DNA from: a phage
Sequence record: PZ445527.1
DNA length: 64,000 bases
Strand: one strand, 5' to 3'
Shown: positions 17,941 through 53,533 of the stretch, piece by piece
How positions within the stretch are numbered: the stretch's first letter is position 1
Layout: each line of letters starts with the position of its first letter
Position numbers and translations under genes: made by a program
Notes under the pieces: generated by a model
Told to the model about the DNA's origin: nothing
Database searches by the model: none
What the model saw: only the letters and a program-made list of their open reading frames with translations

Positions 17941-18017
17941 TGGCGCGACTGATGGGATTTGAACCCACATTCCCTCCCGTGATAGGGGAGTACCATTACC
18001 AAGCCAGCCACGGTCGC
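17941..18017 (-). tRNA. tRNA with unusual anticodon loop CTATCAC (anticodon ATC, isotype uncertain)
   Basis: Acceptor GCGACCG/CAGTCGC, anticodon stem CTCCC/GGGAG, T-arm GTGGG-TTCAAAT-CCCAT, CCA encoded. Confidence 0.6.
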
Positions 18018-42856: not shown

Positions 42857-43285
42857 ATGTTCAATAATGTATTCTCTAAAGAAGCTAACCCAATTTTGGT
42901 TAACTTTTGGCGTACTCTTCCAGCCAACCTATACAATGAGGCTATTAATGCTCTGAAAATATGGTGTGAGAATAATGAAATCTCCTTTGCTTTTAAAGGT
43001 GAGATTGAAGAGGCTCCGTGTATTGGTTTAATTGTGCAGGTGGAGGATGGTCTTGAAGAGATTGTCGGCTGGAAAGAGTTAGATGAAATGGGCTTGGTTT
43101 TTGCATTAAACTATAAGCTGTTTATGCCTAATAAACACCGTATTGTTGTTAATTATAAAACCAGTGAATCTCCTGGTTTTCAAGTTAATGAACGGTATGG
43201 TTGGTCTTACTCACCAGAAGAGGTAAATGATGGTATCCAAAAACTTCGCCGTTTTGGTTATCAAATTCCGGGTTTAACTGCCTAA
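42857..43285 (+). CDS. hypothetical protein (tandem paralog A)
   Basis: 142 aa; shares conserved block with the next ORF. Confidence 0.55.
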   Translation: MFNNVFSKEANPILVNFWRTLPANLYNEAINALKIWCENNEISFAFKGEIEEAPCIGLIVQVEDGLEEIVGWKELDEMGLVFALNYKLFMPNKHRIVVNYKTSESPGFQVNERYGWSYSPEEVNDGIQKLRRFGYQIPGLTA

Positions 43286-43294
43286 GGAGGCACA

Positions 43295-43681
43295 ATGGAA
43301 CAAGTATATTGGCGTCAGATTGATCCTAGTTTAGTGAAGCGTGCAGAGAAGCTGCTACAACGTTGGTTGGGGGTAAGACAAGCCTCCTTCACTTTTCCGG
43401 AGCAGCAAACGGATGATCCCTGTATTGGTGTTTTCCTATCAGGCTACGCTAGGGAATTGGATTGGAATGAGTTGTCTGCTATGGGTTTAATTGTTGCACT
43501 AAATTTCTTTTTGTTCCATCCACGTGGTTTGGCCATATGTCGTGTGCCTGATGACGGTTGTTCGCCCCATCTTTTACAGGTGAAAGATGATACTTGGGAG
43601 TACACTCCAGATATTCTCAAAGAAGCCAAAGAACAATTGAATCGTGTTGGAATCTATGTTCCAGGCCTGAATGATGAATGA
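43295..43681 (+). CDS. hypothetical protein (tandem paralog B)
   Basis: 128 aa; similar to preceding ORF; RBS AAGGAGG. Confidence 0.55.
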   Translation: MEQVYWRQIDPSLVKRAEKLLQRWLGVRQASFTFPEQQTDDPCIGVFLSGYARELDWNELSAMGLIVALNFFLFHPRGLAICRVPDDGCSPHLLQVKDDTWEYTPDILKEAKEQLNRVGIYVPGLNDE

Positions 43682-43704
43682 TTTTTATTAGCTGAACTCT
43701 AATT

Positions 43705-43730
43705 GCCGAGTCATTTTGGCTCGGTTTTCT
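43705..43730 (+). terminator. rho-independent terminator
   Basis: Hairpin GCCGAG...CTCGG followed by TTTTCT. Confidence 0.55.
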
Positions 43731-43772
43731 CTATGCTCAAAGACACTGGTAGCAGCCCCTGGAAAAATCTAC

Positions 43773-43801
43773 TTGCATGATGCTCAAAATCTTGATATAA
43801 T
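43773..43801 (+). promoter_or_regulatory. sigma70 promoter preceding a long non-coding leader
   Basis: TTGCAT, 17 nt spacer, TATAAT; no ORF of 60 aa or more until 44396. Confidence 0.65.
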
Positions 43802-44395
43802 ATTTATATTGAATTGAGAGACATTAGTAAAAATTGATTTTGCTAATTTTTCTTAGTGAAGCTGACAAGGGATTTACGGCGAGAGGAATCGATGACCCGT
43901 AAATAGCTGCATAAGGTACGTTGCTAGAGCTTTACGAAAAAGTTTTTTCTTGTTTACAATCCGCGATACGGAACAGTTAGGCTGCCCCATTAAGGGTTGT
44001 TTTAACTATTACTAGTGTTTATATTGCATTAGTTAATCTTCAATTAAGTGATCTGTGTACCCTGAATTCGGAAAGGTAAATCCAAACCGTGCATATTTAG
44101 CTCGTTATATAGGCAGAGTTTTATATGGGGGTGCGAACGAAAAGAGCAGCGAATGGCGGCACGTACAGTAGTCACCTACCAATAGGATAGTGAGGACAAA
44201 TAGAATCGGCTTAGCGGCCAATGACCTAGGTTCTATTCTGTATATGAGCGAAGAGAGCACAGCACTGAGATATGATAACTTATTCATATTGTTTGATGAT
44301 AATTGATGTTTACGTAAATAGTAGTAATAGTTGTTCTATTCTTTCTGAATAGTCCTAAAGAAAAGATTTCGATTAACCAACACAGGAGTATTATT

Positions 44396-47185
44396 GTGTT
44401 TTCTATCCTCCAAGGTCACGCCGGGTTTTCTCGTGATTTAGCAACAGGTATTTGGCGAGAAATCAAAGCGGAAGATTATACCTTTGCCAAGCGATTCTCG
44501 AAAGAGCATCCAGAAGGTAAACCAGCTTCTATGCCCTTCAAATTTGATGTAATAGAAGAGCACGACCCACAAAGCCTTGCAGAAATGTTACCACTTATGA
44601 GACGTTTAACGTCTGACCCTCATATCGTTGCGGTACGAGGTCGATGTCTTGCACCTAAAAATAATGTGCGACGTAAGAAAGATAACTTTAATGTATCTAA
44701 TCCTAGTAATATTATTGCTATGGACGTGGATGGTATCCTAGATACCGGTGGGTACGACAAATTTAACCTTGTTGGTATGGCCCGCCACATTATTAAGATG
44801 TTGAATAGTATTAGTGAGGATATGTTTCCTCTTGATGCAGGCTTTATAGCTCATGCATCGTCTTCGGCTGGGCTAAAACCAGGTATCCGAATGCACTTAA
44901 TGCTAGAATCTAACGTCAAGGTAACTCAGGGTCAGCTAAAGTTCTTATTTACATCTATCAATGATAGTAGTAAGCAAAAATTTGGTTTTGATATTGCCGA
45001 CCTAGCTTATTATTCATCTGTCCAGCTCCACTATTTTGCCAACCCCTTATTTAGCGATGGTATTGTTGATCCGTTTAAAGCGGAGAGTAAGCCACGTCTG
45101 GTGTATGTTAAAGGTTCGAAAGTAAATTTGCCCAATAATCTGGTTGACTATGAAACAACTAGAGGGGAGTTTAAAGAGGAATTCTACTCTTTACTCGATC
45201 AAATTAAAGGCAAAAAGATTGCTTCCGATAAAGTAGAAGAAACCATTAGCGAGTTAGAAGAGGCTGATGATGGAGTGTACTTGCGTATTATCCCCAAACT
45301 ATACCATAGAGCATTAGAGGATGGTGTTGATTTTGAATGGCTAGAACGTGAGATTAAACCAGCTTTATCTGAATATATTGCAACTAAAGATAACAGCCGT
45401 AATATTCAAGATTACTTTAATAACGGTCGTAAGCAGGCTCTCAAAGCGTTTGTTAATAATTCTAAACGTGAGATTCCATTAAATCTGAAAGGTGTTCCAC
45501 TTAAGAAATTAGAAGTGGATTCTCCACCAGAAGTTCCATACCTGAAGATTAACATTGTGCCCCCAAAAGGCCATATAACATTTGTTAAGGCAAGTCTTGG
45601 TACTGGTAAAACTACGGCAGTAACTAAATGGCTGGACGCAGGTGTTCTTCCGGGCAACTTTTTAGCAGTTACAAATACTAGAGCACTGGTATCTTCAAAT
45701 GCTAAGAAATTTAGTGCAGGACAATATGATAAGTCTGTAGATATGCTTAATTTTAAACGTGGAGCTATTGATCGTATGTCCACAACTATTCACTCTTTAC
45801 ATAAGTTCAAAAGTTTTATTGGGCAAATAGACACCATTTTTATTGATGAATGTGACGCTGTAATGAATGACCTATTATTCGCCCCAGTTGTTAAGCAACG
45901 TCGCGAGTGTATTCAAGTTCTACGTGACATCCTCATGACAGCTAAGACTGTAATCTTATCCGATGGTGATATTAGTGCGGAAACAATTGAAGCATATGGT
46001 TCTTTGATTGAGTTCGATAAACCAGTTGCATTCTATAATCATCACCGTAAGATGCTGTCAAAAGCTCATGCTTATGAGTTCCCTGATGAATCTAGTATTT
46101 GGGTTGCACTTCAGACCTCTCTAGAGATGGGTGAGAAATCTATTCTGGTATCTGATTGTGGGCCGGATGAACTGAATGAGAAGGGCATGGCGTTGCGTCG
46201 TAATACGGGTGCGTTAGTTAAGGAAATCCACTCAAACTCTACGTCTGATGTAGATATTCGACGTATTCTGGATTACACAACTAATGAGTTAATTGACCAA
46301 CAAATTGATTGCTTATTATGTAGTCCATCCGTAACGAGTGGTGTTGACTTCAACTATTTTGATAACGTATTCGTTATTACTAGAACCTCAAACCAAGCGC
46401 CAAACATGCGTTTTCAAGCAATCAGGCGCGACCGTGGTGCTCAGAATATCTATTATTTTATTGATAAATCCACTAGTGGGTTCTCTGCAGGTTCTGAACA
46501 ATATAATATTGATGAAGGTTGGCTGGAGTTAGCACAGCAATTATACGCACGTCGCAGAGAGCTGGAATCTAGGAACTATACTAGTACTTTACGTTATTAT
46601 TTGCTTGATCAGGGTGCAACTATTGATATTTTCAGCGAAAGCTGGGGAACTATTGAAGGTGCTGGTAAAGAGTACACAGAAGAGCGAATCAAAGCTATTC
46701 TGCACTCAACTCCTGATTATTGTGCTCCACGTCATGCGGATGCGTATGAAGCTAAACTACTTCTTGTCCGCTATTATCATCTTGAGTCTATTAAAGATGT
46801 AACAGTTGAGCATGTTGAACAATATATCAAAGATAAGCCGAATGATCGAGCTGCATTCTTCCATAAGATGCACGAGATGTTCTGGGAAGATATTAAGAAG
46901 TGTTCAAATGTGACCATTAAACCATTCATAGAAGCTCTGAAGGGTAAGAAGAAGGACTTCTTCCTTAAAACAGGTCAGAGTGCTAACCCAAAATATGCTA
47001 GAATGTATCTTGGTATGATGGGTATTGGTAAGGATATGAACACTGAAAATATTGTAGACTGGTACAGAACCTATTGTAAAATCGAGTGTATGCCAATTCC
47101 TTTCAAATTCATGACAGAGGAAGAGAAGGCTATGGCAGAAGAAGTAATGTCAGAGCTAGGTGCTAGAAATGACAGTGAAGAATAA
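44396..47185 (+). CDS. large replication-associated P-loop protein (T5 D2-like)
   Basis: 929 aa; GTG start 7 nt after CAGGAG RBS; Walker A ASLGTGKTT and Walker B FIDECD; position upstream of ligase/helicase/primase/polymerase. Confidence 0.65.
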   Translation: MFSILQGHAGFSRDLATGIWREIKAEDYTFAKRFSKEHPEGKPASMPFKFDVIEEHDPQSLAEMLPLMRRLTSDPHIVAVRGRCLAPKNNVRRKKDNFNVSNPSNIIAMDVDGILDTGGYDKFNLVGMARHIIKMLNSISEDMFPLDAGFIAHASSSAGLKPGIRMHLMLESNVKVTQGQLKFLFTSINDSSKQKFGFDIADLAYYSSVQLHYFANPLFSDGIVDPFKAESKPRLVYVKGSKVNLPNNLVDYETTRGEFKEEFYSLLDQIKGKKIASDKVEETISELEEADDGVYLRIIPKLYHRALEDGVDFEWLEREIKPALSEYIATKDNSRNIQDYFNNGRKQALKAFVNNSKREIPLNLKGVPLKKLEVDSPPEVPYLKINIVPPKGHITFVKASLGTGKTTAVTKWLDAGVLPGNFLAVTNTRALVSSNAKKFSAGQYDKSVDMLNFKRGAIDRMSTTIHSLHKFKSFIGQIDTIFIDECDAVMNDLLFAPVVKQRRECIQVLRDILMTAKTVILSDGDISAETIEAYGSLIEFDKPVAFYNHHRKMLSKAHAYEFPDESSIWVALQTSLEMGEKSILVSDCGPDELNEKGMALRRNTGALVKEIHSNSTSDVDIRRILDYTTNELIDQQIDCLLCSPSVTSGVDFNYFDNVFVITRTSNQAPNMRFQAIRRDRGAQNIYYFIDKSTSGFSAGSEQYNIDEGWLELAQQLYARRRELESRNYTSTLRYYLLDQGATIDIFSESWGTIEGAGKEYTEERIKAILHSTPDYCAPRHADAYEAKLLLVRYYHLESIKDVTVEHVEQYIKDKPNDRAAFFHKMHEMFWEDIKKCSNVTIKPFIEALKGKKKDFFLKTGQSANPKYARMYLGMMGIGKDMNTENIVDWYRTYCKIECMPIPFKFMTEEEKAMAEEVMSELGARNDSEE

Positions 47186-52002: not shown

Positions 52003-52773
52003 TTGATGAAAATCGAAATTCCAACACAATGTCCCTCTTGTGGTTCTAAGCTAGATCTTGTCAACGGACAATTATTCTGTCGTAATAAGTCCAACTGTCC
52101 AGCGCAATCAAGTAAGTTAATTGAGAACTTCTGTACAAAAATGAAGTTAAAGGGCTTTGGCCCAAAAACTATTGAGAAGCTGGAGCTGACGAAGATTTCA
52201 GAACTATTTTACCTAACCGAAGAAGATTTGGTTAGAGCCGTGGGTAGCAAGGTTGCCGCTAAGTTAATTAGCGAATTAAATACTAAAGTTCGCGGAGACA
52301 TTGACTTTGGTTCAGTTCTCGGTTCTTTAGGAATCCCTCTGATTGGAGAGGTTGCAGCAAAGAAATTATCCCAAAATTGCACTAGCTTCCACGATGTGAA
52401 GGCTGACGGCAAGGCTGGAGAAAACTATAAAGCCTGGCTAAATTCCCCACAAGGCAAGGATGTAATCGAATTACCGTGGAAATTCTCAAAGGGTGTTAAA
52501 GCTGACATCATTACTGATGGTCTAGTAGCTCAACCAAATGGAATCGCGGTATGTATTACCGGATCTTTGCAAGATTTTGCAAATAGAACGGATGCAACAA
52601 ACTATTTAGAAAGTCTAGGGTATACGGTTAAGAAATCCGTTACTAAAGACGTCAAATACCTAATCTGTGAGGATGAATCAAAACGTTCTTCCTCATCTTA
52701 TAAGAAAGCCGAAACGAATGGGATAGAAATCCTGTCGATTAAAGAACTATTGGAGAAAAATAATAATGTCTAA
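52003..52773 (+). CDS. ligB: NAD-dependent DNA ligase, C-terminal part (Zn finger, HhH, BRCT)
   Basis: 256 aa; begins with Zn-finger Cys cluster CPSCGS...C...C corresponding to the LigA Zn finger. Confidence 0.85.
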   Translation: MMKIEIPTQCPSCGSKLDLVNGQLFCRNKSNCPAQSSKLIENFCTKMKLKGFGPKTIEKLELTKISELFYLTEEDLVRAVGSKVAAKLISELNTKVRGDIDFGSVLGSLGIPLIGEVAAKKLSQNCTSFHDVKADGKAGENYKAWLNSPQGKDVIELPWKFSKGVKADIITDGLVAQPNGIAVCITGSLQDFANRTDATNYLESLGYTVKKSVTKDVKYLICEDESKRSSSSYKKAETNGIEILSIKELLEKNNNV

Positions 52774-53533
52774 ACTGAACTGGAACGTAGAAGGTGTAAC
52801 CGAGTCTCTGAAAGCAAAAGCCACTGCTCTGGGTGTTGCTGTAATCTCTCAAGAACAAGTAGCTGCTATCGCTGCTGAACTGGCCGCTGAAACTGGTAAA
52901 GATGTTACCGCTCGCTCTGTTGGCTCTAAACTGCGTAAAGAAGGTTTTGAAGTACAAAAAGCTAACGAAGTACAGAAATCCCCGTGGACTCCTGAGCAGG
53001 AAGCTGAACTGGTTGATTTCCTGAACGCTCATGCTGGTCAGTATACCTATGCTGAAATCGCTGCTGCTGTAGCTGGTGGTCAGTTCGGTGCTAAGCAGGT
53101 ACAGGGTAAGATTCTGAGTCTGGAAATGACCGCTTCTGTTAAACCAACCGAAAAAGCTGCTGCTGTTCGTTCCTTCACTCCGGATGAAGAAACTGATTTT
53201 GTTAATCAGGTTGTTGCTGGTGCTACTATTGAAGCTATCGCTGCTCACTTCGGTCGTAATATCAAGCAGATCCGTGGTAAAGCTCTGAGCCTGCTTCGTG
53301 AAGGTCGTATCGCTGCTATGCCGGTACAGGAAACCTCAAGTGCTAAAACTCGTGAAGATCTGTTAGAAGGTCTGGATCTGGTTAACATGACTGTTGCTGA
53401 GATCGCTGAGAAAACTGGTAAGTCTGAGCGTGGTGTTAAATCTATGCTGTCTCGTCGTGGTCTGGTTGCTAAGGACTATGATGGTGCCGCTAAGCGTGCT
53501 AAACTGGATGCAAAAGCTGCGGCTGCTGAATAA
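52766..53533 (+). CDS. abundant DNA-binding protein (T5 D5-like), tentative
   Basis: 255 aa, Ala-rich; three internal repeats of a short HTH-like motif; strongly biased codon use. Confidence 0.55.
   Translation: MSKLNWNVEGVTESLKAKATALGVAVISQEQVAAIAAELAAETGKDVTARSVGSKLRKEGFEVQKANEVQKSPWTPEQEAELVDFLNAHAGQYTYAEIAAAVAGGQFGAKQVQGKILSLEMTASVKPTEKAAAVRSFTPDEETDFVNQVVAGATIEAIAAHFGRNIKQIRGKALSLLREGRIAAMPVQETSSAKTREDLLEGLDLVNMTVAEIAEKTGKSERGVKSMLSRRGLVAKDYDGAAKRAKLDAKAAAAE

Follow-up and report, generated by a model that had tools for sequence, protein, structure and literature searches.

The window analyzed here is a 64,000-nucleotide (nt) stretch of a T5-like phage genome (sequence record PZ445527.1), whose closest relative, Escherichia phage DT571/2, is 98.9% identical over the region considered. 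In that region, positions 43682 to 44395, a terminator and a T5-type early promoter are followed by about 588 nt in which no open reading frame (ORF) is credible or conserved; the GTG start codon of the replication gene D2 comes next. The preliminary description of this DNA had placed a strong promoter at 43773..43801, followed by roughly 590 nt free of credible ORFs and, from a GTG at 44396, a D2-like replication gene. The promoter coordinates were accurate, and the gene is D2 itself (44396..47185, + strand), which encodes a 929-amino-acid bipolar superfamily 2 (SF2) helicase resembling the herpesvirus origin-binding protein (OBP) UL9. It is preceded by a Shine-Dalgarno sequence, AGGAG, at 44384-44388, and its GTG corresponds to the start used for expressing T5 D2 in the study that proposed this protein as the T5 replication initiator (PMC3632103). 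The annotation of D2 as a replication origin binding protein stems from a match between its helicase core (residues 389-533) and the Pfam family Herpes_ori_bp. We focus on the predicted 5' leader of the D2 messenger RNA (mRNA), about 588 nt at 43808..44395 on the + strand, whose start near 43808 is placed from the position of the -10 element.

The promoter is of the T5 early sigma-70 type and lies on the + strand. It is composed of a -35 hexamer TTGCAT (43773-43778), a 17-nt spacer, an extended -10 element TGATATAAT (43793-43801), and an A-rich segment at -43. It fits the consensus of T5-like promoters, TTGCTw-17/18-TATAATA (PMC3326045), and two T5 records mark a putative (early) promoter at the homologous site. 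A generic promoter scan missed the site because its -35 hexamer matches TTGACA at just three of six positions. Scanning the window revealed no terminator between the promoter and D2, as is the case in T5-type phages.

Matches to the region were found in 524 phage records. The leader is about 91-92% identical to that of Epseptimavirus, whereas identity is 77% over the final 200 nt of the gene upstream and 84-88% over the initial 200 nt of D2. Being better conserved than the genes beside it, the leader is under selection and is not a spacer. Small ORFs do occur in it, and they are more numerous than those (4 and about 20 codons) listed in the preliminary description; the longest has 38 codons on the + strand and 60 codons on the - strand. 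All of them lack a Shine-Dalgarno sequence, and no ORF is shared across clades. Certain GenBank records annotate tiny hypothetical coding sequences (CDSs) here or extend the D2 ORF into the region, as would suit an unannotated small protein gene, the other prosaic reading being a nonfunctional mosaic spacer. Either is scarcely credible: the 38-codon ORFs of T5 are truncated in Epseptimavirus, substitutions in the leader track base-pairing rather than codon position, and the region exceeds its flanking genes in conservation.

The evidence for a conserved fold came from two sets of leaders. The first consisted of 19 distinct leaders of the window's own type (type A, defined below), for which alifold produced a consensus of 159 pairs. 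Across these pairs, 99.8% of the cells of the alignment were paired. Double changes were present at seven pairs, in the helices P4, P7, P8, P9, and P10, as opposed to zero or one when the pairing partners were slid along the alignment. The covariation score was 0.073, against no more than 0.022 in the slid controls, and none of 500 shuffles reached the observed value. All one-sided changes were compatible with G-U pairing.

The second set addressed the core of the leaders that are not of type A. RNAalifold applied to five divergent sequences returned 60 pairs, 37 of which had compensatory double changes. A covariance model built from these five was then used to align 19 distinct sequences. In that alignment, 93.2% of the cells were paired (about 40% in slid controls), and double changes were found at 43 of the 60 pairs (7 to 15 when slid). 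The covariation score was 0.394, with a maximum of 0.08 for slid partners, and again no shuffle out of 500 attained it.

The signal is specific to one strand. On the + strand, G-U pairs make up 14.5% of the paired cells, and the - strand counterpart of the structure would reach just 85% pairing. The minimum free energy of the leader is -156.6 kcal/mol on the + strand and -115.4 kcal/mol on the - strand; the shuffle z-scores of the core are -2.34 and -1.13, respectively. Given this asymmetry and the conserved promoter, the functional form is therefore the + strand transcript. Compensatory changes thus stand well above both slid and shuffled controls, on one strand, and the region is very probably a genuine conserved structured RNA of a family absent from Rfam. 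Of the three possibilities raised in the preliminary description, a structured leader, a small RNA, and an origin-like region, the first is the one that the comparative alignment of T5-like relatives bears out, through strand specificity, high conservation, and abundant compensatory pair changes; no conserved coding gene emerged, and neither conservation nor structure signal was low.

The absence from Rfam was established by permissive E-value scans, also suggested in that description, of positions 43000-45000 and of 14 related loci, which included the T5, B-type, Sugarland, My1, Priunavirus, Vibrio, and Aeromonas versions. Nothing came near the gathering score of any Rfam 15 family, with riboswitches, leaders, ribozymes, introns, RNase P, tmRNA, ROOL, and GOLLD among those covered, the hits being noise and terminator-like hairpins. 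A literature search likewise found no description of this RNA, of a T5 origin at the sequence level, or of the control or targeting of D2. A group I or group II intron was rejected: the gene upstream is closed by its own stop codon and a terminator, the element begins at a promoter, and no intron model matches.

The resemblance of D2 to UL9, which binds origin DNA, raises the question of whether the region might instead work as DNA, either as a duplex origin with initiator sites or through hairpins in single-stranded DNA (ssi signals, or oriS* of herpes simplex virus [HSV]). D2 is the closest relative of UL9 in bacterial viruses, as judged by the Pfam match, and UL9 recognizes a structured form of its origin; the long inverted repeat of the leader could extrude. 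Moreover, a 9-mer, GTGCGAACG (44131-44139), is identical, in reverse complement, to the core of HSV-1 UL9 box I, CGTTCGCAC. However, this 9-mer is present in a single copy, in type A only, and at chance level, there are no iterons or repeated boxes such as the OBP boxes that surround an AT spacer in oriS, and the similarity between D2 and UL9 is limited to residues 389-533. The structure is asymmetric between the strands, as its G-U content attests, and its nested helices spanning 300 nt, the UUCG and GNRA loops of relatives, and the little-changed distance of the promoter point to RNA and not DNA. A role as a DNA element is accordingly very improbable.

Two specific origin types were considered and rejected. 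For an iteron-type origin, such as lambda ori or a plasmid oriV, which calls for at least three direct repeats of an initiator site beside an AT-rich unwinding element, the leader offers only short repeats in two copies, and its dominant repeat is the inverted repeat that forms helix P3. For a herpesvirus oriS-type origin, it offers a single 9/11 match (44129-44139) to the OBP box, CGTTCGCACTT, and this match is absent from type B and the other clades. Nor does the UL9-box-like GTGCGAACG qualify as a signal, since the window has 4 matches at two or fewer mismatches, where 9.7 would be expected.

The anatomy of the RNA was read from an alignment of 12 phages; all elements described below are on the + strand. 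The start of the leader is conserved, and closest to the 5' end is hairpin P1 (43824..43846), UUAGUAAAA-AUUGA-UUUUGCUAA, which is helix 2 of the alifold consensus for type A; the equivalent hairpins of the related loci L072, L073, and L070 differ in sequence. P2 (43956..44000) is a domain containing the near-invariant GAUACGGAACAGUUAGGCUGCCCC (43965-43988), with the motif GAUACGGAACAGUUnGGCUGC. This motif is common to T5, Epseptimavirus, L072, L073, L086, and L070, and P2 displays compensatory pair changes. P1 and P2 are separated in the window by an optional insertion of about 98 nt (43847..43944), which is bounded by direct repeats of TTTTTCTT and absent from T5. The insertion has a self-folding energy of -21.6 kcal/mol and a single copy in the window. 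It is sporadic among A- and B-type leaders, being found in the window, DT571/2, phA11, 1586, DT57C, L030, L042, and some Salmonella phages, and could have been left by a small mobile element or reflect gain or loss through the repeats.

Downstream of P2, a long-range helix, P3, brings together a 5' arm at 44003..44043 and a 3' arm at 44293..44333. It comprises about 40 base pairs (bp) interrupted by bulges, and is identified by alifold (helices 5-6), by the inverted repeats I1 and I2, and by its duplex energies. For eight of the nine representatives, the latter fall between -31 and -40 kcal/mol, with P3 sequences that are unrelated from clade to clade; shuffled arms give -13 to -16 kcal/mol, and L070 is weaker, at -24.4 kcal/mol. 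Enclosed by P3 is a core domain of at least seven helices (44047..44266), which is closed by P4, formed between AGUG..CUGUGU (44047-44058) and GCACAG..CACU (44257-44266). The stretch from P4 through P10 (44050-44293) measures 244 nt in the window and 239-249 nt in every clade compared.

No motif of the RNA is conserved more widely than hairpin P9 (44199..44237), within the core. It combines an outer stem that covaries, an internal loop on the 3' side, and the inner stem GGCU-UAGC-GGCC (44208-44219). The fold is identical in 10 clade representatives, the window among them, with unrelated outer stems; sequence conservation is confined to the C-U[UAGC]G-G center. Hairpin P10 (44269..44290) lies 3' of P4 and has changed from A-U to G-C at pair 469-488; other clades carry an equivalent with a GUUGCCA loop. 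Several loops and junctions retain invariant unpaired nucleotides, namely GAGAAGUG, UUAGCGG, and a UAG..AGGU loop, and the UUCG and GNRA loops are found in relatives.

A few candidate partners of P9 were examined and discarded. The sequence GCCGCTAAGC (53486-53495) is a perfect 10-nt complement of the P9 loop region, located in the 3' end of an ORF of 255 amino acids (52766-53533), where it encodes GAAKR. As a trans target it is probably a coincidence, the wobble positions not being kept in Sugarland, My1, and one Epseptimavirus. An anti-Shine-Dalgarno function for the internal loop of P9 and kissing of its loop with GCUAA motifs were, on inspection, both inconsistent across clades.

The 3' portion of the leader begins with a terminal hairpin, CUAUUC-UUUCU-GAAUAG (44336..44352; helix 18, inverted repeat I6), which is not followed by a run of U's. 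Farther 3', AAAGAAAA (44358-44365) can pair with UUUUUCUU (43944-43951), as alifold helix 3. The last element is a weak hairpin of 6 bp, ACACAG/UUGUGU (44380..44399, arms 44380-44385 and 44394-44399; alifold helix 19). Its stem includes the AG of the Shine-Dalgarno sequence and the GUG start codon (44396-44398), and the other Shine-Dalgarno bases fall in the loop. All changes in this hairpin are compatible with G-U pairing, and by inspection an AACA...UGUU pairing recurs in other clades.

A duplex of about 40 bp around a compact domain of constant length resembles the processing stems of rRNA and of T7 early mRNAs, and helices of this kind are cleaved by RNase III. By analogy, P3 might be cut (e.g., by RNase III), and the core of about 300 nt would then act in trans as a stable noncoding RNA or ribonucleoprotein, leaving behind a shortened D2 mRNA. 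Invariant unpaired nucleotides, such as those in GAGAAGUG, UUAGCGG, and UAG..AGGU, are typical of tertiary or protein contacts, the RNA is comparable in size and complexity to large ornate RNAs such as ROOL and GOLLD, likewise known from phages, and D2 has a separate promoter in L074 (see below). Against this, the processing is argued by analogy, T5-type phages have no terminator 3' of the RNA, the strict linkage to D2 and the fixed orientation are unneeded for action in trans, and the candidate target at 53486 is not conserved. We regard excision as rather unlikely. The likeness to ROOL, GOLLD, OLE, and raiA nonetheless extends to a length of more than 400 nt, many covarying helices, conserved unpaired junctions, and phage association. 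The differences are that their Rfam models do not match the D2 leader, that they are usually free-standing genes, often near tRNAs, whereas the D2 RNA is fixed in a 5' untranslated region (UTR), and that the D2 RNA is, as far as shown, limited to T5-like phages of the Demerecviridae.

We next considered how the RNA is distributed. Its core of about 300 nt comes in two versions, scarcely alignable with each other: type A, found in the window, T5, and most Epseptimavirus, and type B, found in DT57C, SPC35, and others. The two have in common the island GGCUUAGCGGCC (44208-44219), as well as a conserved 3' block that includes a hairpin and the ribosome-binding site. The same layout is found at outer D2 loci, where D2 is 55-73% identical: those of Sugarlandvirus, a My1-sized contig, Priunavirus PSTCR5, L072, L074, and the metagenomic L086. 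Each of them has a terminator and a TTGCAA/T-17-TATAAT promoter. In these loci, as in nearly all clades examined, the promoter is 485-620 nt upstream of D2, with L074 (765 nt) as the outlier. Most outer loci also carry the P2 motif, the GAGAAGUG junction, a CUUAGCGG hairpin, and the GUUGCCA loop. As judged from these sequences, promoter-led equivalents of the RNA precede D2 in phages of at least five genera, Tequintavirus, Epseptimavirus, Sugarlandvirus, My1-like, and Priunavirus.

Two of the outer loci have a second promoter-like sequence closer to D2. In L074, a sigma-70 consensus promoter (TTGACA-18-TATAAT, approximately 2436-2465) follows the RNA, at 36 nt from the ATG of D2. The corresponding candidate of L072 (approximately 2405-2433) coincides with the AT-rich 3' arm of P3 and may be fortuitous. 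In the Demerecviridae of Vibrio and Aeromonas (L090-L094: Vibrio IW18, phi 3, D145, and PG07; Aeromonas TS3), gene-poor gaps of 640-1400 nt are found upstream of obp. They contain a promoter and GC-rich hairpins, and several records fill them with tiny hypothetical CDSs. Alignments of the Vibrio phage leaders with the T5 RNA were too noisy to establish homology.

The boundary between the two types does not coincide with the end of the RNA. B-type Tequintavirus phages are 92-98% identical to the window upstream of the RNA and in the C-terminal half of D2, versus 43-48% in the RNA core and 68-88% over the first 1300 nt or so of D2. Compared with L028-L038, the divergent block covers positions 44010-45700 of the window, so that A and B cores are each paired with their own version of the first 430 or so D2 codons. 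In keeping with this pairing, a phage with an Epseptimavirus background and a B core (L038) also has the B-type N-terminal region of D2. Thus, the RNA core and the D2 N-domain travel as one block, a pattern compatible with coadaptation and also with simple linkage.

The D2 N-domain itself (residues 1-390, positions 44396-45565) contains the invariant motifs IIAMDVDG, HASSSAGLKPGIRMH, and DIADLAYYS. By eye, these motifs (DxD, SxGxxxH) look like motifs I-III of archaeo-eukaryotic primases, and some GenBank records name the gene "DNA primase C." Profile searches of residues 1-390 against Pfam and the PDB gave no match, and a protein index gave two homologues only. The AlphaFold model of the domain was unusable, with a predicted local distance difference test (pLDDT) score of 39.

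Divergence of the core and the D2 N-domain as a block is what would be expected of an origin and initiator that form a specificity pair. By analogy with known origins, the nascent leader might form a persistent RNA-DNA hybrid that primes the leading strand, or might recruit or load D2 beside its own gene. The element adjoins the gene of the presumed UL9-like initiator, the literature yielded no T5 origin sequence, the AT-rich arms of P3 would melt easily, and in L074 the RNA stays linked to D2 in spite of the separate promoter. The length of the leader is also near that of ColE1 RNA II, about 500-600 nt from a strong promoter. On the other side, initiation of DNA synthesis at the site is itself a proposal by analogy, T4 R-loop origins need no elaborate RNA fold, neither a conserved G-rich or C-rich anchor nor a conserved antisense promoter was seen, and GC-skew reaches its minimum at about 38 kb rather than at 44 kb. 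We consider an origin transcript unlikely, if a serious contender.

The comparison with ColE1 RNA II and with the T4 origins oriF and ori(uvsY) can be made more precise. As in those systems, a strong promoter lies several hundred nt upstream of replication functions, beside replication genes, and the fold of a long transcript would matter. In contrast to them, the D2 leader has neither an antisense promoter of the RNA I type nor a conserved G/C anchor, a mapped DNA start, or an RNase H site. Its fold is also much more complex, covariation preserves that fold across genera, and the transcript runs on into a protein gene. A search for a ColE1-type antisense promoter in the first 100 nt or so found none; the lone promoter-like site on the - strand, at 44419-44390, is weak and falls inside the start of D2. 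The cumulative GC-skew of the window has its minimum at about 38 kb, where gene orientation switches from the - to the + strand, and not at the leader. That position is a rival candidate for the replication origin.

One could go further and regard the RNA as the specificity determinant of T5 initiation, with the D2 N-domain recognizing the nascent leader and thereby tethering the helicase to the DNA under transcription, in an RNA-defined origin or initiator ribonucleoprotein. This proposal is decidedly unlikely to be right as it stands. If true, A and B cores would be incompatible "origin alleles."

On balance, and with a confidence slightly above even, we read the element as the 5' leader of the D2 mRNA, transcribed from its own T5-type early promoter and folded into a large, conserved, multidomain RNA of no described family that has a role in cis. 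As to what that role is, an effect at the RNA level on D2 synthesis, or on the handling or loading of D2, ranks first, although only as a tentative choice, followed by the origin transcript and then by the excised RNA. The RNA is always ahead of D2 and in the same orientation in the loci examined. Acting in cis, it would set the amount of D2 made; for instance, D2 or another replication protein would bind the folded leader and the start-codon hairpin, and the leader might also keep newly made D2 near its own gene.

Several findings weigh against this interpretation. The hairpin at the ribosome-binding site is weak, and its conservation is partly forced by Met-Phe codons. Known translational operators are far simpler than a core of constant length that has more than 12 helices. 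A consensus promoter separates D2 from the RNA in L074, and possibly in L072; D2 can therefore be transcribed there without the leader, which hints at a role beyond that of a 5' UTR. The codivergence of the core and the D2 N-domain could be mere linkage, two alleles being available. The covariance model for non-A cores aligned with the A core of the window over its full length (44050-44288) but scored just 3.2 bits (E = 0.46). Because this score is not significant, the homology of the A core to the cores of other types, which we infer, rests on the flanks, length, position, helix order, and shared P9. Finally, the transcript, its ends, and its regulation are predicted here from sequence.

The closest parallels to a leader acting in cis are the leaders of IncFII repA and IncI repZ and the operators of T4 genes 32 and 43. 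These, too, are cis-acting RNAs just upstream of a replication gene, with a small hairpin that involves the Shine-Dalgarno sequence and the start codon. However, they range from tens of nt to about 150 nt, consist of one hairpin or pseudoknot, and in several cases are paired with antisense RNAs. The D2 leader, in contrast, has at least about 500 nt, more than 12 helices, a core of constant length, and no antisense partner identified.

T5 is a classical model phage. In every genus of T5-like enterobacterial phages examined, D2 is preceded by a conserved and ornate RNA of 450-600 nt. This RNA adds a large structured family, absent from Rfam, from well-studied phages. It offers a concrete, mutable handle on how D2 is controlled or targeted and on how T5 replication is started, and the interchangeable A and B cores constitute a natural swap system.

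Directly upstream of the leader is a DUF7415 gene (43295-43681), a homologue of T5p105. It is one of two tandem DUF7415 (phrog_2502) paralogues, the other being at 42857-43285; both are genes of unassigned function. The upstream operon is closed by an intrinsic terminator on the + strand (43705..43725), a hairpin GCCGAGTC-ATTT-TGGCTCGG followed by a T-run. This terminator is also annotated in T5 (AY587007) and HdH2 and is kept in the 12-phage alignment.

Several relatives (L010, L011 [1016-1468], L014, L024, and L034, as well as L026 and L055) carry, inserted downstream of the terminator and ahead of the leader, an HNH homing-endonuclease gene that has a promoter of its own. The genomes with this insertion have a substitute promoter, TTGCAAGGGAGTATTATTTTATAGTATAAT, at an unchanged distance from D2, which would restore transcription. 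In T5 itself, an HNH gene is located just 3' of D2, and nuclease genes thus flank the mosaic block. Elsewhere in the window, ARAGORN reported a tRNA-Asp with an unusual anticodon, ATC (17941-18017, - strand), among 12 phage tRNA genes at 15.6-22 kb.

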